Shown: positions 17,921 through 64,000 of the stretch, piece after piece | How the letters are laid out: the number at the start of each line of letters is the position of its first letter | Numbering within the stretch: the first letter of the stretch is position 1 | Source: a virus | Lineage: Duplodnaviria; Caudoviricetes | IMG/VR virus record: IMGVR_UViG_3300032321_000388 | Span: 54,645-118,644 of that record | Direction: 5' to 3' (one strand) | DNA length: 64,000 nt | Position numbers and translations under genes: made by a program | Notes under the pieces: model-generated | Told to the model about the DNA's origin: nothing | What the model saw: only the letters and a program-made list of their open reading frames with translations | Databases searched by the model: none

Positions 17921-18976
17921 ATGGCTTTACCTTCTAGCGGAAGAATTAAACTAAGTGATGTTAATACCGAATTAGGATTATCATCTACTACACGCGTATC
18001 TTTAGGTCAAGCTACTGTTCGAACTTTAACTGGTGTTGTATCTGGTAAAATTGCTTTAGCTGCAAATGGATATGGCAAGGCAAATAGAGTATCATTAAGC
18101 AGTACATTTTCTAGTAATACAGCTAATGCTACAGTATCTGTTTCTACATTAATTGGCTATATAGCTGGAAAAACTGATTTAACAATTACAGTTAATAGTG
18201 GAGTATATGTTTATTCTACAGATACAACAGCTCCTGGATTAATTATATCTAATGCTGCAGCAGGCGATACTGTAACATTAGTTAATAATGGCTATATCAT
18301 GGGTAAAGGCGGTAATGGAGCAGGCGTAGGTGGTCAAGCTTATGGTACAACTGGTGAAGTTGGAAAACCTGGTGGTTCTGCTATATACTTGGGATGCAAT
18401 ATTTCTCTTACTAATAATAGTTATATTGGTGGTGGTGGCGGTGGAGGAGCATCAGTTGGTAGATCACGCAGCGGTGGAGCTGGAGGAGCGGGTGGAGGAG
18501 ATGCCGGTGATGCTAGCTTATCATATCCTACTTACTTAGGTGGTCGTGGCGGGGCTCCTGGTGCCGCTGGAACAAATGGTTCTAATACCGGTGTACCTAC
18601 CCATGGAGGCGGTGGAAGAATAATGCCAGGTGTCGGTGGTGGACAAAATTCTAGTGGTGGTCTTGGAGGCGGAGCAGGAGGTGGGGCTGGACCAAGAGCA
18701 TATAATACTTCAGCATCACCTTCTTTACAATTTGCTGGATACTCTTCAGGAGGAAGTGGCGGTGATGCTGCAGGATTAGCATACCTTATAAATTATGAAC
18801 ATTCTTGCGGTGGTGGAGGAGGTTGGGGAGCAAAAGGTGGAGACGCCCAATCTGGAGGAACAGGATCATATCGAAACTTACTAATGTCAGGCGGAGCTGG
18901 CGGTAAAGGCATAGAGCTTAATGGTTATTCAGTCACATATGTAACAACAGGTACAATTTATGGAGCGGTTAGTTAG
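17921..18976 (+). CDS. Glycine-rich fibre-tip adhesin (T-even gp38-like)
   Basis: N-terminal SG.I.LSDVNTELG docking motif; LVNNGYIMGKGG and TNNSYIGGGGGGG polyglycine motifs; C-terminal GTIYGAVS. Confidence 0.7.
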   Translation: MALPSSGRIKLSDVNTELGLSSTTRVSLGQATVRTLTGVVSGKIALAANGYGKANRVSLSSTFSSNTANATVSVSTLIGYIAGKTDLTITVNSGVYVYSTDTTAPGLIISNAAAGDTVTLVNNGYIMGKGGNGAGVGGQAYGTTGEVGKPGGSAIYLGCNISLTNNSYIGGGGGGGASVGRSRSGGAGGAGGGDAGDASLSYPTYLGGRGGAPGAAGTNGSNTGVPTHGGGGRIMPGVGGGQNSSGGLGGGAGGGAGPRAYNTSASPSLQFAGYSSGGSGGDAAGLAYLINYEHSCGGGGGWGAKGGDAQSGGTGSYRNLLMSGGAGGKGIELNGYSVTYVTTGTIYGAVS

Positions 18977-33923: not shown

Positions 33924-35378
33924 ATGATATTTGAAATACTCGGTGAGCGTAGTGCTGGAGATACTAAAGTTTTCTATTATGATAATATGGAAAACATACT
34001 AAAAGATGCTGATGGAAATGTGTTTGAATTTTCTGAAAAGCCTACAATACCAGATCAGTATTTAAAAGAATATAAATCTTTTGATAAAGATCACCCATTA
34101 AAGAAGTCTAATAAGATACAATTATTAAAGATTCAAATGGGTTTAAGTTGCAATTATTCATGTGACTATTGTTCGCAAAAGTTTGTAGAGCGCGCACCAG
34201 AAACTAATAAAGATGATATTAGTGAGTTCATGCAAAAACTAGAAGTACTAGAATTTGATGAAAAGAACGGATTAAAGATTGAATTTTGGGGTGGTGAACC
34301 ATTAGTTTATTGGAAAACATTAAAACCACTTGCAGAAGCATTATACGAAAAATTTGCATCATGGGAAAGAAAACCCCAGTTTAGTATTATTACTAATGGA
34401 TCTATCTTAAGCGATGAGATCATTGATTGGTTAATGAAGATGGAATTTTCTGTTGCTATATCACATGATGGTCCTGGTCAAAGTGTTAGAGGTCCAGATC
34501 CATTTGATGATCCAAAACAGAAAGAAACTATTCTCGGATTCTATAGAATGATGACAAGATTAGGTAAAGGATTTAGCTTTAATGCTATGCTAAATTCTAA
34601 GAATAAGAGTCGCAAAGCAATATATGACTGGTTTGTAAAATTAACTGGTGATGAGAATATTAAACTTGGAGAAGGTTCTATAGTTGATGCTTATGATGAA
34701 GATGGCATAACTAATTCATTACAATCTCTTCAAGAACATTTTGAATTTAGACGTACTGCAGTATCTGATATACTACAGACAGAAGGTAAAATTGGATTCT
34801 TTGGTCAATTACAAAAGATTGACAATTTTACTAGCGGTGTACTAGCTCATAGAAATGCTAAATATGTCGGTCAAAAATGCGGCATGGATGACGAACATAC
34901 TATTGCTGTAGATTTACGAGGTAATGTATTAACATGTCAAAATGTTAGTGCATTGGAAACATCTAAAAATGATGAATCACATCTTGGTGGCAATTTAGAC
35001 GATTATGATAATGTTGAACTTAAATCAGTTACTCATTGGAGTAACCGTAAAGAATGTTCAAGTTGTCCTGTATTACATATTTGTCAAGGAGCTTGTATGT
35101 TCCTTGATAAGAAGTTTTGGGATATATCGTGTGCTAATGCTTATTCAGATAACGTGGCATTATTTGCTTTGGCTATCCATAAAATGACTGGGTACATTCC
35201 AAAGCTAATTAAGAATGATACATTACCATTAGAAAGACAAGATATATTTGGTACAATGTATAAGCATGAAGAAAAAGAAACTAAAAAGATTATACCTATA
35301 AAAGTATTCAACGAGAAAATAATGAAAATTGATGATATTGAAGTTTATGGTAAATCTGTTATTAAAGAAATTAATTAA
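33924..35378 (+). CDS. Radical SAM/SPASM-domain enzyme (peptide/protein maturase type)
   Basis: CNYSCDYC (CxxxCxxC), FWGGEPL, ITNG, ISHDGP. SPASM cysteines: CG...G.V..C...CSSCPVLHICQGAC...C. Confidence 0.92.
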   Translation: MIFEILGERSAGDTKVFYYDNMENILKDADGNVFEFSEKPTIPDQYLKEYKSFDKDHPLKKSNKIQLLKIQMGLSCNYSCDYCSQKFVERAPETNKDDISEFMQKLEVLEFDEKNGLKIEFWGGEPLVYWKTLKPLAEALYEKFASWERKPQFSIITNGSILSDEIIDWLMKMEFSVAISHDGPGQSVRGPDPFDDPKQKETILGFYRMMTRLGKGFSFNAMLNSKNKSRKAIYDWFVKLTGDENIKLGEGSIVDAYDEDGITNSLQSLQEHFEFRRTAVSDILQTEGKIGFFGQLQKIDNFTSGVLAHRNAKYVGQKCGMDDEHTIAVDLRGNVLTCQNVSALETSKNDESHLGGNLDDYDNVELKSVTHWSNRKECSSCPVLHICQGACMFLDKKFWDISCANAYSDNVALFALAIHKMTGYIPKLIKNDTLPLERQDIFGTMYKHEEKETKKIIPIKVFNEKIMKIDDIEVYGKSVIKEIN

Positions 35379-35388
35379 GTAGGGAATT

Positions 35389-36273
35389 ATGACATTACAA
35401 ACAACTGGAACACTAGCAGTATCTGATATTAATACCGAAATAGGTCTTAGTTCTACATACTCTGACGATCTAGCATTTTTAAATAATAAAATTGTGGCTG
35501 CTCAAAGACCAACTACTCCTAATTTTGGTGCATTTTACGGATTAACTCATTTTCAAAATAGCACACAAGGTAATTGTGATAATGCAAATGCTGCTGGTGT
35601 AAATTGTAATTGTGGAAATGTTAATTGTTCTGCCACAGCTAACTGCGCAGGTATTAACTGTACTAACTGTGATACTCAACCCTGGTTACAAACTAATTGT
35701 AACTGTGCTTGTACTTATAACTGCACCAATAATCAAAATTGCTTCTCATATAACTGCAATTGCAGTAAGATTATCTGTACAAAACTATATGAGATTGGAA
35801 TGTTGCCTAAAGATGTGTTTGAAGCAGATCAAGCATTTGGCGATCTATTAAAAGTAAAACATCCAGACGTTTATAATGGTTATATTGCATGGGCTCAAAT
35901 TGTTGTAGATTGGATGAGTGGCAAGGGTCCTAAGATGATGCCTTGGATGTCTGATGAAGAGTTTAGTAAAGCTGCACAAAATTGGTCTACTTCATGGGCA
36001 GAAACTATTGCTACTCCATGGGCTGATTATATGGCATATAAGATGGGTCTAAAAGAAACTATCAATAAGACTGGATTTGTATTAATGATGGTTGGTATAC
36101 CAATTAGTAAAGTTGTTGGTGTATGGCAACGGATATTTGGTAAGAGTACTAAACCTACAGGATTTGGTAAAGGCTTAATGCTTATTGGTATATTTGTCTT
36201 ACTAAAAGCAATAGTTGAAATTGGTAAATTATTTGGTCAAAGGACTGAATCATTAGCTGGGAGAAATGCATAA
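35389..36273 (+). CDS. Fibre-tip-type protein with an Asn-Cys repeat core; putative radical SAM substrate
   Basis: N-terminal TG.LAVSDINTEIG...FGAFYG motif shared with adhesins in this window. 15 Cys, 13 of them as NC, in 35572-35778. Hydrophobic C-terminal domain. Confidence 0.7.
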   Translation: MTLQTTGTLAVSDINTEIGLSSTYSDDLAFLNNKIVAAQRPTTPNFGAFYGLTHFQNSTQGNCDNANAAGVNCNCGNVNCSATANCAGINCTNCDTQPWLQTNCNCACTYNCTNNQNCFSYNCNCSKIICTKLYEIGMLPKDVFEADQAFGDLLKVKHPDVYNGYIAWAQIVVDWMSGKGPKMMPWMSDEEFSKAAQNWSTSWAETIATPWADYMAYKMGLKETINKTGFVLMMVGIPISKVVGVWQRIFGKSTKPTGFGKGLMLIGIFVLLKAIVEIGKLFGQRTESLAGRNA

Positions 36274-49547: not shown

Positions 49548-49555
49548 TATAAATA
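49548..49555 (+). promoter_or_regulatory. Late promoter
   Basis: TATAAATA. Confidence 0.7.
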
Positions 49556-49590
49556 ACAAATAGAAATTAACAAAATTTTCGGAGCAAAAC

Positions 49591-52134
49591 ATGGCAAAGA
49601 CGCTGCAATTTAGAAGAGACTCAACTGCAAACCTAGCATCAGTTACAGGTGCTGTAGGTGAGATTTTTATCGACACAACTAAGAAGACCGTCGTTGTCAT
49701 GGACGGCTCGACACCTGGTGGTTTTCCACTAGAAAAACAAGGTGCTGGCACTGGAGCAACTGGTGCGGCTGGAGCAAACGGAGCAACAGGTTCTGCTGGT
49801 ACTAATGGAGCTACTGGTTCTGCTGGATCAAATGGTACTAATGGAGCTACTGGTTCTGCCGGAACAAATGGTACTGACGGTGCTACTGGTTCTGCAGGTA
49901 TTAACGGTGCTTCAGGTGCTACTGGATCAAATGGTACAAATGGTGCGACAGGTTCTGCCGGTGCAACTGGTTCAGCAGGTACAAACGGTGCTACAGGAGT
50001 TACTGGTGCTTCAGGTGTTTCAGGCTCAAATGGTACTAATGGTGCTACCGGTACTGCAGGTTCTACTGGGGCTCAAGGTATCCAAGGAGCTTCTGGTTCA
50101 ACAGGTTTAACAGGTGCTACTGGTACTCAAGGTATTACAGGTGCTACTGGTTATACAGGTTCTACTGGCGTTAAAGGCGAACAAGGTAACTTTGGTGGTG
50201 CAGCATTTGATTACTTGTATGATAGTACAAGTACTGCTGACTCAGATCCAGGTACTGGTTACTTTAAATTTAATTCTGCAACTTTAAGTTCTGTTGCTTA
50301 TCTATACATCAATGAAACAGATTATTTAGCTAATGTAGCAACATCATTCTTAGAAACAATTGATGATTCTACATCAAGTATCAAAGGTCACTTCTCAATG
50401 GCGAAGAAGACTGATGATACAAAATACACATTATTTGCTATCACTGGTGCTCATACTAAAACTGGAAGTTATTATAAAGTTCCAGTAAGTTATCTATCAG
50501 GTGATACAACGCATACTGATGAAGAAGAAAATATCCTTACATTCCAACGTACTGGTGATAAAGGCGATACAGGTTTAACTGGCGCTACAGGTATCCAAGG
50601 TGCTTCAGGTTCTACAGGTTTAACAGGTGCTACTGGTACACAAGGTATTACAGGTTCTTCTGGTATCCAAGGTGCTTCTGGTTCTACAGGATTAACAGGT
50701 GCTACTGGTACACAAGGTATTACAGGTGCTAGCGGTGTTCAAGGCGCTTCAGGTATTGCAGGCACAAATGGTACAAATGGAGCAACAGGTGCTACAGGTA
50801 TTCAAGGTGCTTCAGGTGTAGGTTCTACTGGTCCTCAAGGTATTACAGGCGCTAGTGGTGCTACAGGTACTCAAGGTGCTTCAGGCGTAGGTGCTACTGG
50901 TGTTGCAGGTACAAATGGTGCAACTGGTTCTACTGGACCTCAAGGCGCTTCAGGCGTAGGTGCTACGGGTTTACAAGGTGCTTCAGGTGTAACTGGTGCT
51001 TCTGGTACAGGTAGTTCTCTTGGTGCTACATCATTTATTTCAATAGCTGGTGAAAGTATTGGCGGTGGTGCAACAGGTGCTACAGGTACTGGTGTAGCTG
51101 CTCGTGCTTATATGTCTCCATCATTTAATGCATATACTGGATCTATAATTGAACCGTTTACTCTTGGTGCTTCTGGTTCTATGACAGCTACAGTTTATAT
51201 TAAATCTGGTTCAGGTGCTACAGGATTCGTAGGATCTACTGGTTCATTAGCAGCTCAAGACGGTTTCTTTAATTCTCTTAGAGTTTCTGGTAATACAGTT
51301 GCTACAGCTCTTACTTCTGCATCATCAGTTCAAGTTGCTACACTTCAAGCTGGTTCTGGCGCTACAGGTGCTACAGGTACAATAGTTGCTGGTAGAGCTC
51401 ATCTAGCTCCAACAATATTAGCATACACAGGTTCTCCAATTGAACCATTTACTCTTGGTGCTACTGGTTCTATTAATGCTAATACATACTTCTTTGGTGG
51501 TATGATAAGTGTTGGTGCTACTGGTTGGGTTGATGGTGCTTCTGGTACTGTCAGAGCTACTGGTTCAATTTCTACAACAAGTTCTAGCTCAACAGCATTT
51601 TCAGCATCATCTGGCGGAGTATCTGCAAATACTTTAAGTGCTTCAACAGTTGCTACCGCTTCTACATTAATTGTTGGTTCTGGCGCTACAGGTGCTACAG
51701 GTACAATATCTGCTGGTCGTGGTATATTGGCTCCAGCAATCTTGGCTTATACGGGTTCTCCAATCGAACCATTTGCACTAGGTGCTTCTGGTACTATCAG
51801 AGCTCAAGGTGATATTACAGCTTACTACACTTCAGACAGAACATTAAAAGAGAATATCAATGATATTCCTAATGCTCTAGATAAAGTTGTTGCAATCGGT
51901 GGTAAAACATTTGATTGGACTGATGAACATATTGCTAATGCAGGTGGAGCAGATGGTTACTTTGTAAATAAAGCCGACTTTGGTGTTATTGCTCAGGACG
52001 TACAAGAAGTATTCCCAGTAGCAGTTCGTTTAAGAGACAATGGTAAACTTGCAGTTGACTATGACAAATTAGTAGCTTTAGCATTTGCTGCTATTAAAGA
52101 GTTAAAAGCTCAACTAGATTTTCTTAAGAAATAA
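49591..52134 (+). CDS. Collagen-like tail fibre with S74 chaperone
   Basis: LQFRR...TGAVGEIFIDTTKKTVVVMDGSTPGGFPL, G-X-Y tracts, and TSDRTLKENI...GVIAQDVQ. Confidence 0.85.
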   Translation: MAKTLQFRRDSTANLASVTGAVGEIFIDTTKKTVVVMDGSTPGGFPLEKQGAGTGATGAAGANGATGSAGTNGATGSAGSNGTNGATGSAGTNGTDGATGSAGINGASGATGSNGTNGATGSAGATGSAGTNGATGVTGASGVSGSNGTNGATGTAGSTGAQGIQGASGSTGLTGATGTQGITGATGYTGSTGVKGEQGNFGGAAFDYLYDSTSTADSDPGTGYFKFNSATLSSVAYLYINETDYLANVATSFLETIDDSTSSIKGHFSMAKKTDDTKYTLFAITGAHTKTGSYYKVPVSYLSGDTTHTDEEENILTFQRTGDKGDTGLTGATGIQGASGSTGLTGATGTQGITGSSGIQGASGSTGLTGATGTQGITGASGVQGASGIAGTNGTNGATGATGIQGASGVGSTGPQGITGASGATGTQGASGVGATGVAGTNGATGSTGPQGASGVGATGLQGASGVTGASGTGSSLGATSFISIAGESIGGGATGATGTGVAARAYMSPSFNAYTGSIIEPFTLGASGSMTATVYIKSGSGATGFVGSTGSLAAQDGFFNSLRVSGNTVATALTSASSVQVATLQAGSGATGATGTIVAGRAHLAPTILAYTGSPIEPFTLGATGSINANTYFFGGMISVGATGWVDGASGTVRATGSISTTSSSSTAFSASSGGVSANTLSASTVATASTLIVGSGATGATGTISAGRGILAPAILAYTGSPIEPFALGASGTIRAQGDITAYYTSDRTLKENINDIPNALDKVVAIGGKTFDWTDEHIANAGGADGYFVNKADFGVIAQDVQEVFPVAVRLRDNGKLAVDYDKLVALAFAAIKELKAQLDFLKK

Positions 52135-52153
52135 CAATCATTAAAGTAATATA

Positions 52154-52185
52154 AAAAGGTATCTTACTTACTACAGATACCTTTT
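52154..52185 (+). terminator. Probable intrinsic terminator
   Basis: AAAAGGTATCT, 10-nt loop, AGATACCTTTT, located after the fibre gene. Confidence 0.65.
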
Positions 52186-52243
52186 ATATCATTAGCTATT
52201 AGAACTAGAGAAAAGAGATAAATAATTTAAAGGTGATTATATT

Positions 52244-52897
52244 ATGAAAAAAGAGCATGATAAGTTAGAGGATTATTATTTTTTTCAAACTGCTGTGTAT
52301 AAGATTCAAAAACTAGATTTTCTTGACAAAATAAGAAGTGTATCTATAGAATCTGTAACAGAAGTTAATAAAGATTTAGAATTAAATGACCTATATCCAA
52401 TTAGGATGTCTGCGGACTTAGCGCAAGACCCAAGATTGGAAGACTTTTCTAAATATGTTTTAGGAACGGCTTGGAATATACTTGATAGTCAGGGTTATGA
52501 AATGGATTATTTTGATGTTGGATTCTCATCTATGTGGTTTCAAGAACATCATAAGTATTCTGGGATGGATACACATGTTCATGGAGAAGGAACGCAGTTA
52601 AACGCTTTTTACTTTGTTGATGTTCCAGAAAATGGATCAAAGATGATACTACACGATCCAAGATCAGGAAAGGCTTTGATAGATCTACCTCAAAAAGATA
52701 TAAAAGAGATAAATCAAGCAAGCAAGATGGTGGTAATATCTCCTGAACCTGGTGATTTATTTTTTACAAATGCATATGTTCCACATTCATTTAGTAAAAA
52801 TGGTTCAGATAAATCATTCAACTTTATTCATATGAATATATTTGCTTCTCCACATAGAGAACAATCATGTTCGGTTGATGGGCCGGAAATTATATAA
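52244..52897 (+). CDS. Putative 2OG-Fe(II) oxygenase (TIGR02466-like)
   Basis: WFQEH......HVH, FYFV..P, HDPR, PEPGDL.F.NAY.PH...N. Confidence 0.78.
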   Translation: MKKEHDKLEDYYFFQTAVYKIQKLDFLDKIRSVSIESVTEVNKDLELNDLYPIRMSADLAQDPRLEDFSKYVLGTAWNILDSQGYEMDYFDVGFSSMWFQEHHKYSGMDTHVHGEGTQLNAFYFVDVPENGSKMILHDPRSGKALIDLPQKDIKEINQASKMVVISPEPGDLFFTNAYVPHSFSKNGSDKSFNFIHMNIFASPHREQSCSVDGPEII

Positions 52898-53118
52898 TGG
52901 CTCACTTCTTGATTAGATTTAATAAAACCAGAGGAACTCCTGGTAGAGGTACAGCAGATCACGCATGGAGAGTGTTTGAAGATAATAAAGAATATTTATT
53001 TAAGCATGTTAAAATTAATGTTTCATCCAAATCAGAAAGAACTGGTGAAGATTGGAATATAGCTTGTGATGGTACTTTAACAATAGATAGAGAAAATTCT
53101 ATAGCTATCATTAATTAG
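52897..53118 (+). CDS. Hypothetical protein
   Basis: 73 aa (IRFNKTRG.PGRGT.DH.WRVFE), coupled to the oxygenase. Confidence 0.7.
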   Translation: MAHFLIRFNKTRGTPGRGTADHAWRVFEDNKEYLFKHVKINVSSKSERTGEDWNIACDGTLTIDRENSIAIIN

Positions 53119-53128
53119 AAAGTATAAA

Positions 53129-54262
53129 ATGGCAATAAACGCCTCAGGTATAATAAGCATAGGTGGATCAGCAGGAGCTGGAGCCTCTGTTGCGCTTGAA
53201 CTTGGGTTATCAGGAACAGCTCAATTAGGTTTAAATTGTGCTGCACCTAGAGCGTTGGCGGGTATTCCTTCTGGAGTAATTTCTTTAAGTAATTTCTATG
53301 GAAAGTCTAATAGTACTGGTCCTACAACTGGTATATATTATGGAGGTCAAAACACATGCCAATTGGCAATTAATAGAGTAACTAGAATCAATTCTTGTGG
53401 AGCATTAATTGGATCAACAACTACTGCTGGAACTGCAAGATTTCAAAATGCTGGAGCTGAATTACCATGTAGTAGAACAGTATTCTATGGAGGCTCGTAT
53501 AGGACAGGTGGATATATTCATTATCCTACATTGAATACTGTAACTAGAATTAATAAATGCGGAGCTATTGTTGGCTCTGAAGGTACTGCAGGTCGAAGTT
53601 GTGGTACTGCAACTCATGGTGGAGTTAAAGCTGGTAGTAATGGATTATTTTATGGTGGATTTGCTGAAACTTTACCTGGTTGCTATTACTTTGGTTGTGC
53701 GACAAATTCTGTAGTAAGAATTAATAAGTGTGGAGCACAAGTTGGATCAACAACTACTGCTGGAACTAAAAGATATTATGTTCAAGGTGTTGGTATTTGT
53801 TGTAATGCAAACTTTTTTGCGTCTGGTCGATATAGTTGCGTAAATACTCCTTGTTGTTCAGCAGTTATTAATAAACTGACTAAAATTAATAATTGTGGAG
53901 CTCTTGTTTCTGAAACATGCGTGCCATCTGGAATGCGTGTTAGAAATTATGGTGGGGTTGCAGCAAAAGCAGGAAGTGTTGGTGTATTTGCATATGGTCA
54001 AGCGGATTGTGATGCTTGTACTTACAAAAAAGTTGATAGGTTAAATAAATGCGGGGCAGTAGTTGGAAGTGTAACCACTGTTGGAACTGGCACTATGGCA
54101 GGTGCTGCAGCGCAAATAGGATCAAATGCAGTAGTTTATGGCGGATATTCAGGTGGATATACTAATAAAGCAACTAGAATAAATGCTTGTGGTGCGCAAG
54201 TTGGAATATGTACTACAGTTTCAACAGCTCAATATGGTCACGGTGCAGCTAGTACTTCATAA
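53129..54262 (+). CDS. Cys-rich six-repeat (beta-propeller-like) fibre-tip protein
   Basis: N-terminal SG.ISI...ELG...ISLSNFYGKS docking motif and six (R/K)(I/L)NxCGA repeats. Confidence 0.65.
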   Translation: MAINASGIISIGGSAGAGASVALELGLSGTAQLGLNCAAPRALAGIPSGVISLSNFYGKSNSTGPTTGIYYGGQNTCQLAINRVTRINSCGALIGSTTTAGTARFQNAGAELPCSRTVFYGGSYRTGGYIHYPTLNTVTRINKCGAIVGSEGTAGRSCGTATHGGVKAGSNGLFYGGFAETLPGCYYFGCATNSVVRINKCGAQVGSTTTAGTKRYYVQGVGICCNANFFASGRYSCVNTPCCSAVINKLTKINNCGALVSETCVPSGMRVRNYGGVAAKAGSVGVFAYGQADCDACTYKKVDRLNKCGAVVGSVTTVGTGTMAGAAAQIGSNAVVYGGYSGGYTNKATRINACGAQVGICTTVSTAQYGHGAASTS

Positions 54263-54275
54263 TTAAAGGAAAAAA

Positions 54276-54839
54276 ATGTCAAGAGTGAATCATAATGCGC
54301 AGTATATCTACGATGTAGAAGGTGAGACTATTTGGGAAAAATTAAGAGTTATAAGAAATCAATTAGAACAAAGACAATTAGCTTTAGATCTATCACTTCT
54401 TAATAAAGAAAAAGCAGAAGCTAAGTTTAAAGACGATAAAGAATCATATGAGTATCGTGAATTTATAATACATTCTAAACAAAGAGAACAATTAATTCAA
54501 GATTGTATTAATGAAATAGAATTCTTAAAAGAGTTTGAATCTTATCTAGCATTAGAAGCAGAAAAGACAAGAATTCCTGGTAAGACTGATGATGAGATGT
54601 ATGAGCTTAATTTCTTTGAAGAATTAAAAGTTAGACTAGTAAGAAGAGCTCAGACACAAATTATTTCTTCTGGAAGAGTAGACCAAGAAACATTATCTAG
54701 AATATTAAAGATGCCTGATGCTTTACAATTGTGTATAACATCAGGATTATTAACTAATGATGTATTAAATTTTACTAATATTCCTCAATTACCTAATAAT
54801 GATATTACGATAAATTATTTGGAGAAGAAAGATGATTAA
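54276..54839 (+). CDS. Hypothetical helical protein
   Basis: 187 aa, AAGGA RBS. Confidence 0.7.
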   Translation: MSRVNHNAQYIYDVEGETIWEKLRVIRNQLEQRQLALDLSLLNKEKAEAKFKDDKESYEYREFIIHSKQREQLIQDCINEIEFLKEFESYLALEAEKTRIPGKTDDEMYELNFFEELKVRLVRRAQTQIISSGRVDQETLSRILKMPDALQLCITSGLLTNDVLNFTNIPQLPNNDITINYLEKKDD

Positions 54840-55110
54840 TTGGCTATATATTCTTAACGGAATAGTGGTAGAAATAGTTCAAATGGAACCAGGAATTACT
54901 CCAAATACTGTACAATTTGGTGGAACTTTTGATACTTTAACTGCAGATCATTCACAAACTTTTAAAATAGGTGATGCTTTTACAGATGAGCTTCAATTAC
55001 AATATAACCATGAAATATGGACTTCTATGGCATGGCTCACGGCACCAGTAACTGGAGCAAGCGGTGCTGCAGAATATTGTAATTTAATGCCACACTTGTA
55101 TATAATATAA
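54832..55110 (+). CDS. Hypothetical protein (possible fibre assembly helper)
   Basis: 92 aa with an NGIVVEIV motif, overlapping the upstream stop. Confidence 0.55.
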   Translation: MINWLYILNGIVVEIVQMEPGITPNTVQFGGTFDTLTADHSQTFKIGDAFTDELQLQYNHEIWTSMAWLTAPVTGASGAAEYCNLMPHLYII

Positions 55111-55137
55111 GTCTGGTTATAGGGATAAAAACGCATA

Positions 55138-55359
55138 ATGAATACATACAATTTAATTTCTCATAACGATGAGACAAAAACATTTGTAATTGAATCTAAA
55201 GGTCATTCAATTACTCTTAATTATCCGGAAGATATTACATTATTTTCTGAATTTACACAAGAAAATTTAGATCTACATGTATCAGGATTTATTTCAAATC
55301 TTACTGATTATGTAGAACCTCCTGTACTAAACCACATAGAAAGTGTAAGACTTGTATGA
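55138..55359 (+). CDS. Hypothetical protein
   Basis: 73 aa, coupled to the next gene (ATGA). Confidence 0.6.
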   Translation: MNTYNLISHNDETKTFVIESKGHSITLNYPEDITLFSEFTQENLDLHVSGFISNLTDYVEPPVLNHIESVRLV

Positions 55360-56480
55360 AAATTTATTTAGAAGATAGAGCTCCATCTACTTTACAAAAT
55401 TCACTTACTAGAATAGGTGTTGAGTATACTGCTGATATAAATGAAGCAGTGACTAATGCTGTTCATATAACAGATAACTTCCCTTTAGATCTAACAGGCA
55501 AAGCTGATTCAGATCTTGAGTGTCAATCATATGGTAATAAAGAATTATACGTTAGAAAGAAAAACAATTTACCAACATGTGATATACGTTTTAGAAATTT
55601 TCTTTCTGATAAACTAAGAGAATTAAATCTTCCTAATGCTGATACAATCTATCCAACTAGCGCTGAACAGGTTCAGACATTTTTTAATACACATTCATCA
55701 GTAATTATAAAACCTTTATTAGAACAAAAAGGTACACCAGGCGGTATTAGTTATGGATTTAATGTTTATACATCATATAATGATTTTATAGCGGATATCG
55801 ATATTACTCAATTTATTAGTTCACAAAATAATCATCAAGTTACTGCAAATAAAAAATGTATTCTTCAAAGTACTGTAGAAAATAGAGATAATACTTGGTC
55901 AGTATTTGGTGTAGTTAATGGAAACCAACAGTATTATTTTGATAATATTTCATTCTACAATAATAGTGAATCATCTACTACATACTTTAATTCTGACAAT
56001 GCATTAAATATTTCTGCCATGACTAATGGAGCAAAGGATCCTAGTAAAGAAAACTTGGATCAATATGGTATTTCAGAATCTATAAAAACTTTACTTAATG
56101 CATCTAATGTAAAAAATACAGTATTTTATGTAAGTGGATTAATGAAAGACGGTCAGATCTATATTCAATATATTACTACTAAAGTAATTCCATGGTTCGT
56201 CTCAACAGGATTAGAATCTACTCTTGACAGTTATTTAAAATTTGCTTTTGACATGGAATCTTCAGTAACTCCACTTAATAAATGGAGACTTTATCTACAT
56301 GCTAAATTGAAACCAGGATTAGTATATAATTCTGAAATAGTAAATGCAGCAAAAGCACTTAAACTTTATCCTGCATATGTATATTCGGATAAAGATACAG
56401 GAACATTTCATGCTATGGCAGATTCATTAGAAGAGTTACTATCAAATATTAGCTCATTCAATAGCATATATCAAATATAA
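55356..56480 (+). CDS. Divergent ATP-grasp-fold-like protein
   Basis: LRELNLP..DT, F......VIIKP, ILQ, SVFGVVNG. The canonical E-x-N motif is not evident. Confidence 0.5.
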   Translation: MKIYLEDRAPSTLQNSLTRIGVEYTADINEAVTNAVHITDNFPLDLTGKADSDLECQSYGNKELYVRKKNNLPTCDIRFRNFLSDKLRELNLPNADTIYPTSAEQVQTFFNTHSSVIIKPLLEQKGTPGGISYGFNVYTSYNDFIADIDITQFISSQNNHQVTANKKCILQSTVENRDNTWSVFGVVNGNQQYYFDNISFYNNSESSTTYFNSDNALNISAMTNGAKDPSKENLDQYGISESIKTLLNASNVKNTVFYVSGLMKDGQIYIQYITTKVIPWFVSTGLESTLDSYLKFAFDMESSVTPLNKWRLYLHAKLKPGLVYNSEIVNAAKALKLYPAYVYSDKDTGTFHAMADSLEELLSNISSFNSIYQI

Positions 56481-56493
56481 CTAGGGATAAAAA

Positions 56494-57066
56494 ATGGCAA
56501 TCGGAACCACAGGACCAATATTATTTGCAGGTACTATTGGTGTAGAACTAGGTAGATCATCTACAGCTCAGATATCTATGAGTGAGTCGGCAGTTTACAC
56601 TCTAGCAGGAACTTCAGCTGGAGCTCAGATATCGTTCTCAACATTCTACGGCAAATCTAATGCTGTAACTTATAACCTCACTATTTCATCTAATACTACT
56701 AATTACAATATGGCTACAGCAGCTACAAGTGCTGGATGGAATGGCACAGCAGCATGTACTGTAAATTGTACAATTAATTCTGGTGTAGAAGTTACATCAA
56801 CATCAACTGGTTCATATGCATTTGATACTGGTAGTGCTTTTGTTGGCAAAACTGTTACACTAAGTCTAATAAATAATGGTTATATAGTTGGTAAAGGTGG
56901 AGATGGCGGCCGAGGTGGAAATTCAGTTTTTGGGAATGCCACACAAGGTCTAACTGTTAGTGGTAATGGTGGTCCAGCATTTATTGCTCGCCAAGCTATA
57001 TCAATTACAAATAATGGCACAATAGGTGGTGGAGGTGGTGGAGGTGCTGCGAGAGCTGCACATTAA
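56494..57066 (+). CDS. gp38-like glycine-rich adhesin, N-terminal part
   Basis: ELG...ISFSTFYGKSN, INNGYIVGKGG, TNNGTIGGGGGGG. Paralog of ORF 17921. Confidence 0.7.
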   Translation: MAIGTTGPILFAGTIGVELGRSSTAQISMSESAVYTLAGTSAGAQISFSTFYGKSNAVTYNLTISSNTTNYNMATAATSAGWNGTAACTVNCTINSGVEVTSTSTGSYAFDTGSAFVGKTVTLSLINNGYIVGKGGDGGRGGNSVFGNATQGLTVSGNGGPAFIARQAISITNNGTIGGGGGGGAARAAH

Positions 57067-57090
57067 TAAAATTTTAATAGGAGAATATAA

Positions 57091-57459
57091 ATGAGTGCAT
57101 GCGAATGTTGTATTTCGCCCGGTGAGGGTGGTAGCGGTGGAGCTGGGTATGGAGCTGGCGGAGATCCAGGTTCAGCTGGCGACTTTGACTGCGGTGTTGG
57201 ATATCAGGGTGTATCGGCAAATCCTGGAACACTAACGGCTGGTGGAGCTGCTATAAACAAATATGGTGTCGCCTCAGGTGCTCCTTTTAATGGTGCTGGT
57301 GGAGCTCTTGGATCTGCCGGTGATGTCGTTCGGTACCAAGGTAATCCTTATAATGTGGGAAATGAAGGTACTCCTGGGTCTGGTGGAGCGGCTATAGCAG
57401 GTAATTCATATATTACATGGGTTGCAACTGGAACAAGATCAGGGGCAATTAACTCATAA
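57091..57459 (+). CDS. gp38-like glycine-rich adhesin, C-terminal part
   Basis: Same frame as ORF 56494, with its own AGGAG RBS. Ends GG.AI.GNSYITWVATGTRSGAIN, matching the end of ORF 17921. Confidence 0.7.
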   Translation: MSACECCISPGEGGSGGAGYGAGGDPGSAGDFDCGVGYQGVSANPGTLTAGGAAINKYGVASGAPFNGAGGALGSAGDVVRYQGNPYNVGNEGTPGSGGAAIAGNSYITWVATGTRSGAINS

Positions 57460-57479
57460 TAAACACTTGAGATTAAATT

Positions 57480-58682
57480 ATGAAAATTTATTTGAATGTA
57501 ATTAATAATAGTAAAATAGTTTCATCATTAGATCGTTTGGGAATTTCATATACAGCCGATGTTAATGAGCCAGGAATTACATCAACCATTCATATGAATG
57601 AATCAATTGATGTAATGCAATTATCTAATAAAACAAATTTAGATCCAGATTTATTATCAAAGTCTCTTGGTCACGCATCATCTTACATAAGACTAAAAAA
57701 TAATCTATCAACTCATGATATTAAGTTCAAGCATATACTTAATGATAAGTTGGCAGAATTAAATCTTCCTCATATAGATTCAGTATATCCAACAAGTATT
57801 CAACAAGTTAAAGACTTCTTTAATTTACATTCAGAAGTGTTTATTAAACCAATATCAGGACAAGGTGGTATTGTTAATAAAAAGTTAGCTTCTAATGGTG
57901 GTCATAATCTTCCTAATAATTTTGCGGAATATGCATATAAGATATTTAACTCATACGAACATTTTACATCTAGTGTAAATATGGAAGATTTTATCAGAGA
58001 TCAAAATAATTTAAATCTAATTGGATTTAAAAGATTCATACTTCAAAAAGCTATAAAACATCCAGATTATACATTCACGGTTATTGGTGCGGTTAACGGT
58101 AAACAAGAATATTACTTTGATCCATTTGTCATGTATAAACCAAATGGATCTGATTTAGGATATGGGTCAGGTAATTTTAATGGTCTTTATAATGAAGATA
58201 ATACTCCAAATGAAGAAGCTATAAGACATGCTGCAAAGGATCCGAGCAAAGCCAATGTCGATCAATATAACATATTAGAAACTATTAAAACACTATTTAA
58301 TGCTACTGAAGTAAAGAATACTATGTTCTATATTCAAGGAATTGTTATAGACAGTGTTTCATATCTTCAGGATATAGGAATACATGTTCCGGCTTCGTAT
58401 CAGAATTCTCATAGTGATGATATTCTTGACAGTTATTTAAAATTTACTTATGATATCGATCCAATAGTCATGAATCCATTAAAAAAATGGGGCATATATC
58501 TTTATATTAAATTAAGAGATGGTCTACAGTATAATGAAGAGATTTTAGATTTTGCCAGATCTATTGGTATTAAACCTGTGACCGTTAGAGATAATACACA
58601 AACTGGAATATTTCATGCTTATGCTGATACTCTAGATGATCTGGTAAATAATATAAATACCTTTAATAAGAAGTACCAATAA
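57480..58682 (+). CDS. Divergent ATP-grasp-fold-like protein (paralog of ORF 55356)
   Basis: K..L...LAELNLP, VFIKPISGQGG, FILQKAI, YLQDIG. Confidence 0.55.
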   Translation: MKIYLNVINNSKIVSSLDRLGISYTADVNEPGITSTIHMNESIDVMQLSNKTNLDPDLLSKSLGHASSYIRLKNNLSTHDIKFKHILNDKLAELNLPHIDSVYPTSIQQVKDFFNLHSEVFIKPISGQGGIVNKKLASNGGHNLPNNFAEYAYKIFNSYEHFTSSVNMEDFIRDQNNLNLIGFKRFILQKAIKHPDYTFTVIGAVNGKQEYYFDPFVMYKPNGSDLGYGSGNFNGLYNEDNTPNEEAIRHAAKDPSKANVDQYNILETIKTLFNATEVKNTMFYIQGIVIDSVSYLQDIGIHVPASYQNSHSDDILDSYLKFTYDIDPIVMNPLKKWGIYLYIKLRDGLQYNEEILDFARSIGIKPVTVRDNTQTGIFHAYADTLDDLVNNINTFNKKYQ

Positions 58683-60340: not shown

Positions 60341-60823
60341 ATGGCGGTCAAGACTTTAGTAATAATTAATCCAACAGGAGCTACAGGCGGTGCAACTGGA
60401 ACATATATTGGTGTTCCTAATGATTTTGTTTCATTGATATCAATTGAAGCTATAGCCGGAGGCGGTGGTGGAGGATATAATGGAGTCATAGGCGGAGGCC
60501 GTGGTGGGGGTGGTGGTGCATATGTCAAATCTACTGGTGCCACAGGATTGGTACCAGGGGCTTCTATGTTCTATTATGTTGGTTATGGTGGTAATGGTGG
60601 TGGTTCTACTGGTGCTGCTACTAACGGAGGTCCTACTTGGCTTACTATAGGTACAAATAGTCCCCCATCTTTTTCTTATCAAGGTATATTTGCTCCCGGA
60701 GGTATAGCTGCTCAAACGGGTTCAACAGGTGCCACTGGTGGATTTGGTGGCGGTACAGTAGGTACTACCGGTGCAACAGGATGGACGGGTTCAACAGGAT
60801 ACAGAGGCGGTAAAGGTGGATAA
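60341..60823 (+). CDS. Glycine-rich domain protein, N-terminal part of a split domain
   Basis: VP.D....IEAIAGGGGG...GGGGGAY...VG.GG; ends YRGGKGG*. Confidence 0.7.
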   Translation: MAVKTLVIINPTGATGGATGTYIGVPNDFVSLISIEAIAGGGGGGYNGVIGGGRGGGGGAYVKSTGATGLVPGASMFYYVGYGGNGGGSTGAATNGGPTWLTIGTNSPPSFSYQGIFAPGGIAAQTGSTGATGGFGGGTVGTTGATGWTGSTGYRGGKGG

Positions 60824-63800
60824 TGTTTGATCTATTAAAACTATTCTTTAATCCACTCAAGTTAGTAGAATTATTCACGTTTAATGCGATCGCTGGTTAT
60901 GGTGGCGGCGGTGCAGGCGGACCTTTCGGCGGCGGCGCAAACGGTGCAACAGGTGCAGCAGGTGCAACTGGTGCTGCAGGTGGAGCAGGCGCAACAGGAT
61001 TTTTAGGAGCATCAGGTGCAACAGGCGCTGCCACATATTCAGCAGGGGCCGGTGGTGCAGGTGGAGCAGGTAGCTTACAAGCTGGTGCCACTGGAGTATC
61101 ATATGGTGGCGGTGCTGGTGGTGGGGGTGGTGGTGACGTAGGTAAAGGAGCTCCAGGTATCATCGTCATTACTTATAATGCCCCAGATATATTAACAACA
61201 GCTTATTGGGTTGGTGGTAGTGGTACTTGGGATGAAACAACAACAACAAACTGGGCATCTACATCAGGAGGTGCTGGTGGTGCTGGAATTCCTGCCGCTG
61301 GATCAACAGTTATCTTTAACGCTAGCTCTGGAACAGGTACAGTCACTATTGGTACTAATCCAGCCTGTGCATATATTACATGTACGGCAGCAAGTGGATC
61401 ATTAGCATTTTCAGGCTCAAATACAATTACAGCATCAGGCGCAACCGCAGCTGGCGCTATTGCTATTACATCAGGTTCATGGAGTGGATTTACAGGTACG
61501 CTTTCAATTAATAATACTGGGTTTACTACATCATTATCTATTGCATCGGGTGTATCGTTTGGGGCATCAGTAAGTTATATACCAACAACTTCTGGAACGC
61601 TTTCTATTACTGCTAATACAACAATAGCAACTACAGGAACATTTAGCTTTTTACCTGTTACTGCAGGTACATTAGATTTAACAGGCGCTACTACTGGTAA
61701 CTTTACTTTATCTTGCGGATTATTTAATTCATCTAGTGCTATTACTCGTTCTATTACATTTGGCACAGGCGCTATCACTACTACTGGCTCTGGAACTGCA
61801 TTTACTACTGCTACAGCTACAGGACTTACATACACAGGTACACCCACTGTTAACATATCTAATAACTCTGCAACCGCCACTACTGTAACTGCTCATACTA
61901 CAGGTGGTACAGAAGCTAATGTATTTAATTTTAACTTTACCACAGGCACATACACATTAACATTAACTAATAATTCAATAGTTAAATCATTAGTCTTTAC
62001 AGGATTTACTGGATCATGGACTCCATCGAATACAACCACCTTTTATGGAAATTTAACGCTTGTTTCTGGCATGACATATGGTGCAACCGCGAGCTCATTT
62101 AACTTTTACGCTACATCTGGTACACAAGTAATTACATCTGCAAGTAAAACATTATATAACATTAATCAAAACGGTGTTGGCGGTACAGTTCAGATGCTTT
62201 CTGGCACAACTACTATAAATAGCTATGGATTAGTCAATGGCACTTTAGATTTAGGTACTAATACAGCTACCTTATCATGTTCTAACTTTGCGTCTAGTAA
62301 CACTAACACTCGTTCAATTATTTTTGGCACAGGACAAATTACTTTAACTGGAAATGGTACAACTATTTGGACGACCGCAACTGCCACTAATTTTACCTAC
62401 ACCGGCACAGCAAAAATTGTCTCAAATTATTCAGGATCATCAGGTACTAGAACATTTTCTTTTGGAGCAATGACATCACCATTTACTGTGGGGTCTGGGT
62501 CAGGCAATCAAGTTTCATTTGGTACAGCCGGAACGGATATAATAGCTTTTGGCGCAAGCTCGTCTATAGCCTCTCTTGACTTTACAGGGTTTACAGGAAC
62601 ATGGGCTCAGTCTACCAACGCAATGTCTATCACTTCAGGTGATTTAACATTAGTATCTGGCATGACATGTACACCAAGCACAGGGGTTATATCATTCACA
62701 GCTACATCTGGCACACAAAATATTACATTCGCTGGCAAAACAACTAATCCTATTACTAAAACCGGAGCAAGCGGAACTTTATCTTTAGTAGATGCAGCAA
62801 GTATTAACGGAGCTTTAACTGTTACTACTGGAACATTCAATGCTAATAATCAAAACGTAAGCGCAACATCTTTATCTTCAAATAATAACACTTCCGTTTC
62901 AGTAACTATGGGTTCTGGTACATGGACACTATCTGGGACAGGAACAGTATGGTTTGTACAAAGTTTAGCTACAATTAATGCAAACACTTCAACGATTGCT
63001 TTATCAACTACAACAGCAACAGCTACAACTTTTGCTGGTGGTGGAAAAACTTATTATAACTTATCTTTATCTGGTGCTACTGGTTCAACCCCGCTAACTA
63101 TTACTGGTGCAAATACATTTAATCAGATATCAAGTTCTAAAACTGTTGCATATTCAATAACGCTTCCAGCAAGTACAACGACTACTGTAGGCACATGGTC
63201 AGCACAAGGCTCATCTGGAAACTTATTAACATTAAATTCATCAACTGCAGGAACACAAGCTACTTTATCTTGTACTAATGCGGCGTCCATAGATTACGCA
63301 TTAGTACAAGATAATACTCTTTCATCAACTAATGGTACTGTAACTAATGGATATTTAAATAATAAAACTACAGGATGGACTGCTGGTACTGGATCAACTT
63401 ATTATGATCTTTTAACCTCAGGCACATCATACACAATTCCGTCTACATGGAATTCTGCAGATAATTCAATTCACATAATTGGTGGTGGCGGTGGCGGTGC
63501 GGGATCAACAGCCAACGCCGCTAATCGAGCTGGGGGCGGTGGAGGCGGAGGCGGCGGTTATGCAAAATTAGTTAACCAATCTTATACTTCAGGACAAGTT
63601 ATTACTTATGCTATTGGTGCAGTAGGATCTACTGGAGGGAGTGGAGGCTCAACAGGATCTACAGCAGGTACAGGAGGTACAACATCATGGAACTCTGGAA
63701 CTGGTACCGCAACTGGCGGTGCAGGCGGAACCTCTACACCAACAACTTCAACAGGTGGCGCTGGAGGTACAGGGTCTGGCGGCACATTAAATTACACAGG

Positions 63801-64000
63801 CGGTACAGGAGGTGCTGGAAGCACGTTTTCAAGTGTAAGTGTAGGTCATGGTGGAGGCGGCGGAGGTGGAGCTGGTGGCCCTAATGGTAACGGGGGTAAT
63901 GGCGGTACGGGATTTGCAAGCAGTGTTGCCGCTTCTGTTAGCGGCGGTGGCGGAGGTGGTAATGGAGGTGGATCTGCTGGCGGTGGTGCTGCGGCTGGTG
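60823..64000 (+). CDS. Large Gly/Thr/Ser-rich virion protein, 3'-truncated
   Basis: ATG overlaps the upstream stop. Reads MFDLLKLFFNPLKLVELFTFNAIAGYGGGGAGGP...GIIVITY...YWVGGSGTWD..., with a second glycine-rich domain from about 63420. No stop was seen in the stretches I translated; it is probably missing from the track because it has no stop in the window. Confidence 0.8.
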   Translation, partial: MFDLLKLFFNPLKLVELFTFNAIAGYGGGGAGGPFGGGANGATGAAGATGAAGGAGATGFLGASGATGAATYSAGAGGAGGAGSLQAGATGVSYGGGAGGGGGGDVGKGAPGIIVITYNAPDILTTAYWVGGSGTWDETTTTNWASTSGGAGGAGIPAAGSTVIFNASSGTGTVTIGTNPACAYITCTAASGSLAFSGSNTITASGATAAGAIAITSGSWSGFTGTLSINNTGFTTSLSIASGVSFGASVSYIPTTSGTLSITANTTIATTGTFSFLPVTAGTLDLTGATTGNFTLSCGLFNSSSAITRSITFGTGAITTTGSGTAFTTATATGLTYTGTPTVNISNNSATATTVTAHTTGGTEANVFNFNFTTGTYTLTLTNNSIVKSLVFTGFTGSWTPSNTTTFYGNLTLVSGMTYGATASSFNFYATSGTQVITSASKTLYNINQNGVGGTVQMLSGTTTINSYGLVNGTLDLGTNTATLSCSNFASSNTNTRSIIFGTGQITLTGNGTTIWTTATATNFTYTGTAKIVSNYSGSSGTRTFSFGAMTSPFTVGSGSGNQVSFGTAGTDIIAFGASSSIASLDFTGFTGTWAQSTNAMSITSGDLTLVSGMTCTPSTGVISFTATSGTQNITFAGKTTNPITKTGASGTLSLVDAASINGALTVTTGTFNANNQNVSATSLSSNNNTSVSVTMGSGTWTLSGTGTVWFVQSLATINANTSTIALSTTTATATTFAGGGKTYYNLSLSGATGSTPLTITGANTFNQISSSKTVAYSITLPASTTTTVGTWSAQGSSGNLLTLNSSTAGTQATLSCTNAASIDYALVQDNTLSSTNGTVTNGYLNNKTTGWTAGTGSTYYDLLTSGTSYTIPSTWNSADNSIHIIGGGGGGAGSTANAANRAGGGGGGGGGYAKLVNQSYTSGQVITYAIGAVGSTGGSGGSTGSTAGTGGTTSWNSGTGTATGGAGGTSTPTTSTGGAGGTGSGGTLNYTGGTGGAGSTFSSVSVGHGGGGGGGAGGPNGNGGNGGTGFASSVAASVSGGGGGGNGGGSAGGGAAAG

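Follow-up and report, generated by a model that had tools for sequence, protein, structure and literature searches.

The enzyme neighbours of a split gp38-type adhesin suggest that some T4-like phages chemically finish their receptor-binding tip

Why should a phage encode one adhesin in two adjoining genes, and why should such a pair lie among genes for ATP-grasp-fold enzymes? The question is raised by a stretch of 64,000 nucleotides (the window), which constitutes the last 64 kb of the 118.6-kb IMG/VR virus record IMGVR_UViG_3300032321_000388 (~74% complete). The phage is T4-like: it encodes gp5 and gp6 of the baseplate and has numerous fibre genes of the collagen, Mtd_N and S74 kinds. The locus is composed as follows (aa, amino acids; HMM, hidden Markov model):

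55138..55359, + strand: small 73-aa protein (the small protein below), whose stop overlaps the start of ATP-grasp-1 by 4 nt (ATGA)
55356..56480, + strand: ATP-grasp-fold enzyme, paralog 1 (ATP-grasp-1), 374 aa; family HMM E 1e-113; 42% identity to paralog 2
56494..57066, + strand: gp38-type adhesin N-half, 190 aa; Pfam GP38; fibre-attachment domain, beta-helix and first polyglycine motif; model residues 1-190
57067..57090, no strand: spacer between the halves, 24 nt; holds two more TAA codons in frame and, as ribosome-binding site, AGGAG
57091..57459, + strand: gp38-type adhesin C-half, 122 aa; C-half HMM E 2e-36; MSACECC start, remaining polyglycine motifs, variable loops and conserved C-terminal strands GNSYITWVATGTRSGAI
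57480..58682, + strand: ATP-grasp-fold enzyme, paralog 2 (ATP-grasp-2), 400 aa; AlphaFold2 (AF2) model with a predicted local distance difference test score (pLDDT) of 87; ATP-grasp fold matches

The two open reading frames (ORFs) of the adhesin rather probably form a working two-chain gp38 tail-fibre adhesin, an old and conserved arrangement in a clade of uncultured aquatic T4-like phages, and maturation of the C-half in the manner of a ribosomally synthesized and post-translationally modified peptide (RiPP) is considered its most likely course.

The halves lie in one frame, since their start-to-start distance (57091 minus 56494) is 597 nt, or 199 codons. The junction reads TAA TAA AAT TTT AAT AGG AGA ATA TAA ATG, with three in-frame stops and an AGGAG located 7 nt ahead of the ATG; the N-half finishes GGGGGGGAARAAH and the C-half begins MSACECCISPGEGG. 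An initial annotation, made from the letters alone, had described these two ORFs, their common frame, the three TAA codons and the AGGAG site correctly, and had taken the pair for one complete paralog of an intact adhesin, separated by an evolved split and not by a nonsense accident. Both of these views are borne out by the comparisons below. The N-half matches Pfam GP38 (PF05268) at 29.0 bits (cut-off 25; profile positions 4-117 of 218) and is 37% identical (E 1e-15) to residues 1-169 of the intact protein, encoded by the following gene:

17921..18976, + strand: intact single-gene gp38-type paralog, 351 aa; Pfam GP38 25.7 bits; N-half HMM E 3e-30; no adjoining ATP-grasp or radical-SAM gene

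The C-half of the window has no Pfam match, and a BLAST search against the intact protein detected nothing; the homologous C-half of locus L003 scores 21.9 bits against the GP38 profile, below its cut-off, at positions 102-215. Collinearity of the C-half with the intact protein is found in alignment A6, in which the pair, read through with translation table 6 (TAA=Q) as an artificial single chain, is aligned with 46 intact homologs. The AF2 model of this read-through chain has a pLDDT of 85.8, which drops to 64-72 only near the junction. It matches S16 gp38 (6f45_D) with Z 22.6 and a root-mean-square deviation (rmsd) of 4.0, with 238 of 248 residues aligned (model residues 11-320), and PP01 gp38 (9v85_A) with Z 22.6 and rmsd 2.6 over 209 residues. 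Both halves thus appear to be needed for one gp38 fold, because the gp38 match of the model spans the two of them and the next match reaches only Z 5.9.

In alignment A6 and in an alignment of 16 C-halves (A5), conserved polyglycine runs alternate with segments variable in length and sequence. The site of the break corresponds to the variable segment that separates polyglycine run 1 from run 2, namely the first hypervariable one, so that the initial annotation placed it correctly at a variable loop immediately behind the first polyglycine motif. In solved gp38 structures the hypervariable segments form the receptor-binding loops, and the N- and C-termini jointly build the attachment and beta-helix domains (PMC12032242). 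Two separate chains could therefore stay together: by analogy with gp38, the C-half would lay its conserved C-terminal strands (GNSYxTWxATGTR) against the beta-helix of its N-half partner, and the chains would be held non-covalently.

The split is by no means confined to the window. A search with the N-half returned 917 homologs. A length of 180-202 aa is shared by 81 of the 120 best clusters and by every one of the best 52, and intact forms (268-333 aa) are more distant from the N-half of the window than split forms are. Fifteen distinct loci are split at the same place, in the first hypervariable loop. In seven loci with DNA, nine junctions were read; in each, the polyglycine run is shortly followed by a stop, and a ribosome-binding site then precedes another ATG; the spacers in relatives measure 4-45 nt and carry their own ribosome-binding site, six of the nine junctions being in frame and three out of frame. 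The ratios of nonsynonymous to synonymous substitution rates (dN/dS), which are rough figures because several dS values are saturated, lie at 0.11-0.36 for all half pairs compared but one, the exception being the N-half pair of L012 and L019 (0.73, a value to which a badly aligned fused ORF may have given rise). Against locus L004, the halves of the window give 0.23 (N-half) and 0.30 (C-half). Both halves appear, on these ratios, to be under purifying selection.

Two ways of joining the halves into one chain were considered and rejected. Programmed read-through or frameshifting is excluded because three junctions are out of frame, and in five loci another gene lies between the halves. A split intein or trans-splicing is contradicted by the lack of any Hint match and by the short ends, the N-half stopping 1-8 residues past its polyglycine run and the C-half starting at most ~25 residues before the next run.

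The split adhesins also vary in their arrangement. L009 (5958-8047) and L010 (5966-8018) carry two split pairs in tandem (N, C, N, C) followed by one chaperone and one ATP-grasp gene; the leaders of the tandem pairs are near-identical (MEFKPLLQNKRL(V/I)ACGACAC), and their variable loops differ. In L019 (6867-8405), L020 (2596-3627), L021 (2-1084) and L026 (3917-4948) the N-half domain forms the C-terminal part of a longer ORF of 343-512 aa, and the C-half is a separate gene. Among unsplit homologs in alignment A6, P0151, P0084 and P0114 have Cys in the loop at which the split occurs, immediately ahead of polyglycine run 2, e.g. FECCPAC-GGGGGG, and such Cys-bearing intact loops could resemble the ancestral state of the split. 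The intact adhesin at 17921 groups with intact adhesins that coexist with split ones in L020 and L026.

What accompanies the split was examined in 70 IMG/VR loci seeded by the N-half alignment together with earlier loci (66 unique loci), the flanks of which were scanned up to 8 kb on either side with local HMMs for seven components: the N-half, the C-half, the ATP-grasp enzyme, a radical-SAM enzyme, a chaperone, the small protein and a ~95-aa helical protein which precedes the N-half in many relatives. An ATP-grasp gene occurs in 14 of 15 split loci and a radical-SAM gene in 13 of 15, while neither occurs in any of the 43 unsplit loci; counting only relatives of the window, the figures are 13 of 14 and 12 of 14, respectively. 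The association of ATP-grasp with the split has a Fisher p of 1.5e-12 (4.6e-10 with the N-half-seeded loci alone). The two split loci lacking radical-SAM are short contigs, and two complete genomes with intact adhesins contain neither enzyme anywhere. The link between enzymes and split is real, and the co-occurrence in relatives, for which the initial annotation had proposed a check in the case of the ATP-grasp enzymes, has thus been found.

The gene set stays together across five gene orders. The cassette consists of the adhesin pair with a radical-SAM/SPASM-type enzyme, a tail-fibre assembly chaperone, the small protein and an ATP-grasp ligase translationally coupled to the latter, and in relatives it comes after Mtd_N, collagen and S74 fibre genes. 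The radical-SAM gene lies between the halves in L012, L013, L017, L019 and L023, just upstream in L007, L009, L010 and L011, and just downstream in the other loci; in L021 and L026 the order is nh-ch-sm-ag-apc-rSAM (N-half, C-half, small protein, ATP-grasp, chaperone, radical-SAM). Relatives have a single ATP-grasp gene, downstream of the adhesin pair. The initial annotation had seen the pair as sandwiched between two such genes, which is true of the window and not of the relatives. The arrangement appears to be accidental, because each ATP-grasp gene of the window trails its own adhesin-type gene: ATP-grasp-2 directly follows the split pair, and ATP-grasp-1 trails a run headed by a Cys-rich adhesin-type protein, followed by two small ORFs, the small protein and ATP-grasp-1 itself:

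53129..54262, + strand: adhesin-type protein, 377 aa; N-terminal attachment module (MAxxxSG...ELGxS.T...FYGKSN) common to 56494 and 17921; Cys-rich repeat body

This protein has no match in Pfam, PHROG or NCBIfam. It contains 21 Cys in about seven repeats with the motif (T/N)RIN(K/S)CGA.

Are the flanking proteins ATP-grasp enzymes, as first proposed? They are indeed paralogous (42% identity, E 3e-104), and the fold is that of true ATP-grasp enzymes. A Foldseek search with the model of paralog 2 gave PurK at E 1.3e-12, with PurT, PurD and L-amino-acid ligases also at about E 1e-12; at least 500 matches had E<=0.001, and all 37 among the matches listed are ATP-grasp-type enzymes. Structure comparison (VIA) gave Z 18.7 for PurK (317 residues aligned), 17.9 for L-amino-acid ligases, 14.9 and 14.3 for ArgX and LysX, and 11.5-13.1 for the RiPP ATP-grasp ligases 7mgv, 5ig9 and 7drm. 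The Atlas neighbours of these proteins carry ATP-grasp_4 and LAL_C2. NCBIfam and PHROGs gave no match, and the Pfam family ATPgrasp_YheCD was matched by five of the 28 members on which the family model was built (best E 5e-6). Among 1.84 billion proteins the family counts no more than 30 representatives and is thus a rare one. The paralogs of the window are each other's closest relatives, which argues for a local, lineage-specific duplication. Between loci, ATP-grasp identity is 22-44%, where the radical-SAM enzymes show 39-99%.

The phage enzyme matches L-amino-acid ligases and PurK/PurT (RizA 4WD3, BL00235 3VOT, PurK 1B6R) throughout their three domains, the C-terminal subdomain included (residues 1-400; Z 17.9-18.7), and the ATP-binding Lys-Pro strand and putative hinge Gln are conserved. 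It differs from them in its low identity (9-13%), in a D-x-S that replaces E-x-N, in a first metal position occupied by Gln or Glu, and in being encoded only in phage adhesin cassettes. Its resemblance to the graspetide ligases of the MdnB/C and PsnB type is weaker (Z 11.5-13.1) than that to PurK and L-amino-acid ligases.

In 12 relatives a homolog of the small protein (68-104 aa; HMM E 1e-15 to 1e-37) is encoded immediately upstream of ATP-grasp. The N-terminal ~55 aa of these homologs are conserved, and the tail is variable and Thr/Glu/Pro-rich, often ending in W-x-Y or EWF. The small protein has no match in Pfam, NCBIfam or PHROGs, nor a usable one in the Atlas; it could be the partner or the substrate of the ATP-grasp enzyme.

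The closer partner of the split adhesin, which the initial annotation had missed, is the radical-SAM/SPASM-type enzyme together with a Cys-bearing start of the C-half. The cassette radical-SAM enzymes form one orthologous family (39-99% identity among themselves). Their best matches are Cys-cross-linking radical-SAM/SPASM peptide maturases, PapB and QhpD types among them, with scores far below the family cut-offs (45-83 bits against 340-453); PapB is matched at 45-49 bits (cut-off 340) and the SPASM domain at 26.3 bits (cut-off 27). In each of the 16 aligned C-halves a Cys shortly ahead of the second polyglycine run is invariant, and the C-terminus is conserved. Most of them open with a leader of 10-25 residues in front of the conserved motif, the start having the form M-x-FKPxxQxKRL(I/V)(A/G)CGAC(A/S). 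In 12 relatives, the window excluded, the radical-SAM gene stands beside such a Cys-bearing, leader-carrying C-half, in five of them directly before it, and the start of the C-half is, the enzyme itself aside, the only Cys motif near the radical-SAM gene in relatives. The C-half therefore looks like a leader-bearing precursor for the radical-SAM enzyme, because its leader is conserved and its Cys motif is the sole one nearby. A lipoprotein signal, for which the lipobox-like RLVAC might be taken, was rejected, as no hydrophobic segment precedes RLVAC.

The likeliest mechanism may be outlined as follows, with the substrates and chemistry of the enzymes being what we infer from these arrangements. 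The N-half supplies the fibre-attachment domain, the beta-helix and the first polyglycine motif, and the C-half the remaining polyglycine sandwich and the variable loops. The break replaces the first hypervariable loop, whereby the tip would carry a free N-terminal peptide with the invariant Cys; in most relatives this peptide is the leader FKPxxQxKRL followed by CGAC(A/S)C. Maturation of the C-half would then follow the pattern of a RiPP precursor protein. Modification or cross-linking of its Cys motif would fall to the radical-SAM enzyme, and a second ligation, dependent on ATP, to the ATP-grasp enzyme and its small partner, the substrate being either the adhesin or the tail of the partner. 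The chaperone would subsequently help to mount both chains on the fibre. We thus tentatively propose that an aquatic T4-like clade may build the receptor-binding face of its adhesin by RiPP-type chemistry, gp38 having been divided at the first hypervariable loop for its distal half to serve as a leader-bearing precursor, in which a radical-SAM/SPASM enzyme would cross-link the Cys motif and an ATP-grasp enzyme would add a second, ATP-dependent bond; the virion would consequently present to the host receptor a structure which is made post-translationally and is not genetically templated.

Several observations weigh against this proposal and against the two-chain adhesin on which it is built. 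The gp38-fold model rests on an artificial single chain. The tree of the N-half domain is poorly resolved (the quick tree needs three changes, with not more than one forced), such that all split loci may descend from a single event, and the co-occurrence counts are thus not independent events. The leader is not universal, since L005 has a cassette radical-SAM enzyme and a C-half with a minimal start (MACAYYS). The complete 234.9-kb genome of the L023 record has the split and the radical-SAM enzyme and contains no ATP-grasp gene of this family. The ATP-grasp proteins fall below every Pfam cut-off, the best being ATPgrasp_YheCD at 19.7 bits against 26.8, and their E-x-N motif is replaced by a conserved D-x-S (D298 in 27 of 28 members; position 300 Ser in 17 and Gly in 4; position 286 Gln in 16 and Glu in 6). 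The window itself is odd, in that its ATP-grasp gene is duplicated and the leader of its C-half is reduced to MSA (start MSACECC), and no orthologous radical-SAM gene is found in the 118.6-kb record (itself only ~74% complete), the sole gene of this kind being:

33924..35378, + strand: sole radical-SAM/SPASM gene of the genome record; PapB-type match 1.6e-23; SPASM domain 34.2 bits against a cut-off of 27; non-orthologous to the cassette enzyme of relatives

This gene lies 22 kb from the pair; its product shares 24-35% identity with the cassette enzymes, on whose HMM it reaches 133 bits, full-length members reaching 740-890. The record also lacks homologs of the chaperone and of the ~95-aa helical protein. 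The window thus holds a rearranged, reduced cassette.

The absence of E-x-N had been noted by the initial annotation, and D298 with Ser or Gly at position 300 is indeed found there instead; the inactivity for which it allowed is less well borne out. K123-P124 and Q189 are present in all 28 members and K154 in 17 of 28. Positions were assigned via alignment to PDB 7drm for the Lys-Pro strand and via the ATPgrasp_YheCD match, which spans residues 105-196; Q189 is, from its position in the motif, the putative hinge residue, and D298 aligns with the Glu of the E-x-T motif in 4dim. D-x-S is a conserved variant rather than a sign of decay. Since the canonical nucleotide and Mg positions are occupied by the conserved K123, Q189 and D298, the enzyme is probably not dead, with a working nucleotide site.

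The initial annotation had held that the split was made to expose the carboxyl end of the N-half and the amino end of the C-half at the receptor-binding face, to be ligated, capped or extended by the ATP-grasp enzymes. The break does lie in a tip loop, split and ATP-grasp strongly co-occur, and ArgX and LysX are among the structural matches (Z 14.9 and 14.3). RimK, LysX/ArgX and tubulin tyrosine ligase are ATP-grasp enzymes acting on C-terminal carboxylates of proteins, and the substrates of these known C-terminal ligases are conserved. The tails of the N-halves past the polyglycine run, on the other hand, are unconserved and range from one to eight residues (AARAAH, IQTT, PAAVS, SKYG, LYIY, a single S); most C-halves have the 10-25-residue leader, which places their amino end away from the polyglycine core; the complete L023 genome is split and has no ATP-grasp; and ATP-grasp-1 of the window trails a different adhesin-type gene. 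Ligation of the new termini is unlikely for the first three of these reasons. The split, its loop position, the fold and the co-occurrence thus survive from that first interpretation, and its specific chemistry does not.

Alternatively, the ATP-grasp enzyme may act on the tail of the upstream small protein, in the manner of a graspetide precursor or a LysW-like carrier, giving a separate fibre accessory or peptide and leaving the adhesin untouched. The small-protein gene overlaps the ATP-grasp start (ATGA) in the window and precedes ATP-grasp in 12 relatives, its conserved ~55-aa N-terminal part and variable tail have a precursor-like layout, and the RiPP ATP-grasp ligases match structurally (Z 11.5-13.1). 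The phage genes also resemble LysW/LysX (ArgX) and RimK, in which an ATP-grasp gene is coupled to the gene of a small acidic protein (Z 14.3-14.9 to ArgX/LysX), yet the phage small protein has neither a zinc ribbon nor a conserved acidic C-terminus, and the phage ATP-grasp has a C-terminal subdomain missing from ArgX/LysX, the alignment to which stops near residue 327. Moreover, the small protein shows no conserved Thr/Ser-Asp/Glu core motif; it is absent beside ATP-grasp-2 of the window and in L014 and L018; PurK and L-amino-acid ligases are better matches than the graspetide enzymes; and the restriction of ATP-grasp to split adhesins would be left unexplained. This course is accordingly rated as improbable.

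It is more doubtful still that the ATP-grasp gene is an auxiliary metabolic gene of a hypervariable host-recognition island, near the adhesin by shared ancestry only. The best fold matches are purine-pathway enzymes, and in relatives genes for TctA/TctC, a TonB-dependent receptor, S-adenosylmethionine (AdoMet) decarboxylase and a fatty-acid desaturase come after ATP-grasp. However, the gene stays with the adhesin pair in five gene orders, also inside the cassette (L021, L026), it evolves as fast as receptor-binding proteins (the 22-44% identity against 39-99% for radical-SAM noted above), and the window has two copies where there are no such metabolic genes. The weakest of the rivals, a decaying pseudogene of a duplicated adhesin, could appeal to the one frame interrupted by three stops and to the intact paralog at 17921, but it is excluded by the recurrence of the same split in 15 distinct loci and dozens of protein clusters, the C-half's own ribosome-binding site and start codon, the low dN/dS of the window halves against L004 and the fully conserved C-terminal motif.

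The metabolic genes constitute an observation in their own right. In L003-L010 (e.g. L004, 7247-12076; L005, 7168-11857; L009, 10596-14591) the cassette is followed by TctC, TctA, a ~700-aa TonB-dependent receptor, DctP, AdoMet decarboxylase and fatty-acid desaturase. For an outer-membrane receptor of the TonB-dependent type to be encoded in apparent phage contigs (up to 103 kb) is unusual; the genome record of the window has neither a TonB-dependent receptor nor TctA. In L009 (8575-9021) and L010 (8493-8933) a 146-148-aa protein with a His-rich, cupin-like motif (HDHPFDH ... THS) is encoded between the chaperone gene and the small protein, and may be a third enzyme of the set.

How does a two-chain adhesin matured in a RiPP-like manner compare with known systems? 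With gp38 of T2/T6/S16/PP01-type Straboviridae (PF05268; PDB 6F45, 9V85) it shares the attachment domain, the beta-helix and the polyglycine type II sandwich, the alternation of glycine-rich motifs with hypervariable segments, the conserved C-terminus which returns to the beta-helix, and the position in the tail-fibre module (PMC12032242). Straboviridae gp38 is one monomeric polypeptide, whereas in the window two genes, each with its own start, encode the adhesin, the cut lying in the first hypervariable segment; unlike Straboviridae gp38, the phage C-half also has a Cys-bearing N-terminal extension and is linked with radical-SAM and ATP-grasp genes. The known gp38 proteins are, to our knowledge, all single chains, and we know of no modification of them. 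QhpD with the quinohemoprotein amine dehydrogenase gamma subunit, and PapB with PapA (a ranthipeptide), resemble the phage cassette of relatives in that a radical-SAM/SPASM-type gene adjoins that of a ~110-160-aa protein which opens with a leader and then a Cys motif. The thioethers made by QhpD link Cys to Asp or Glu within a leader-bearing subunit, which afterwards becomes part of a larger protein. The phage differs in that the presumed substrate is a virion receptor-binding protein, in that the window has no orthologous enzyme, and in that no gene for a leader-removal protease was noted among the cassette genes.

The region has no DNA or protein match in the GenBank phage collection, and a scan of IMG/VR with one ATP-grasp protein as query gave no match. 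In the literature, no paper was found which describes a split gp38 or joins ATP-grasp, radical SAM and tail fibres in phages, and the main comparative gp38 paper does not contain the words split, truncated, pseudogene or cysteine. A study of pelagimyophages reports radical-SAM cassettes in a hypervariable host-recognition cluster and does not mention ATP-grasp (PMC7029224); that cluster resembles the region which holds the split adhesin.

The wider surroundings of the locus in the window show several further features. An N-terminal module of ~55 aa (M-x-x-x-x-SG ... ELG-x-S-x-T ... (F)YGK-x-N), whose gp38 counterpart is the fibre-attachment domain, is common to 17921-18976, 35389-36273, 53129-54262 and 56494-57066. 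The bodies behind it are of four kinds, namely intact polyglycine, an Asn-Cys tract, Cys-rich repeats and split polyglycine, and a single type of socket seems to serve the phage for several alternative tips. A second glycine-rich ORF of 160 aa (60341-60823), which ends YRGGKGG, overlaps (TAATG) the start of a >1059-aa protein at 60823-63999. The T4 late-promoter consensus TATAAATA lies just 5' of several fibre genes (49548, 58699, 42756, 41038, 39215), and is not enriched overall (14 observed, 10.4 expected). None is present from 49555 to 58652, so there is no sign of a promoter belonging to the C-half, and 49591-58682 may be one late transcription unit.

The gp38 adhesins are the model of T-even host choice and a main target of host-range engineering. 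The enzyme neighbours of the split adhesin suggest that these phages chemically finish the receptor-binding tip. If so, and with a widespread two-chain form strictly tied to a radical-SAM and an ATP-grasp enzyme, abundant aquatic phages may rely for host recognition on a chemistry made by enzymes, which the adhesin sequence by itself does not reveal, and RiPP-type enzymes would gain a role in virion building. The present work brings forward two uncharacterised enzyme families, and the question of what they do is directly testable, because each has a candidate substrate encoded next door.

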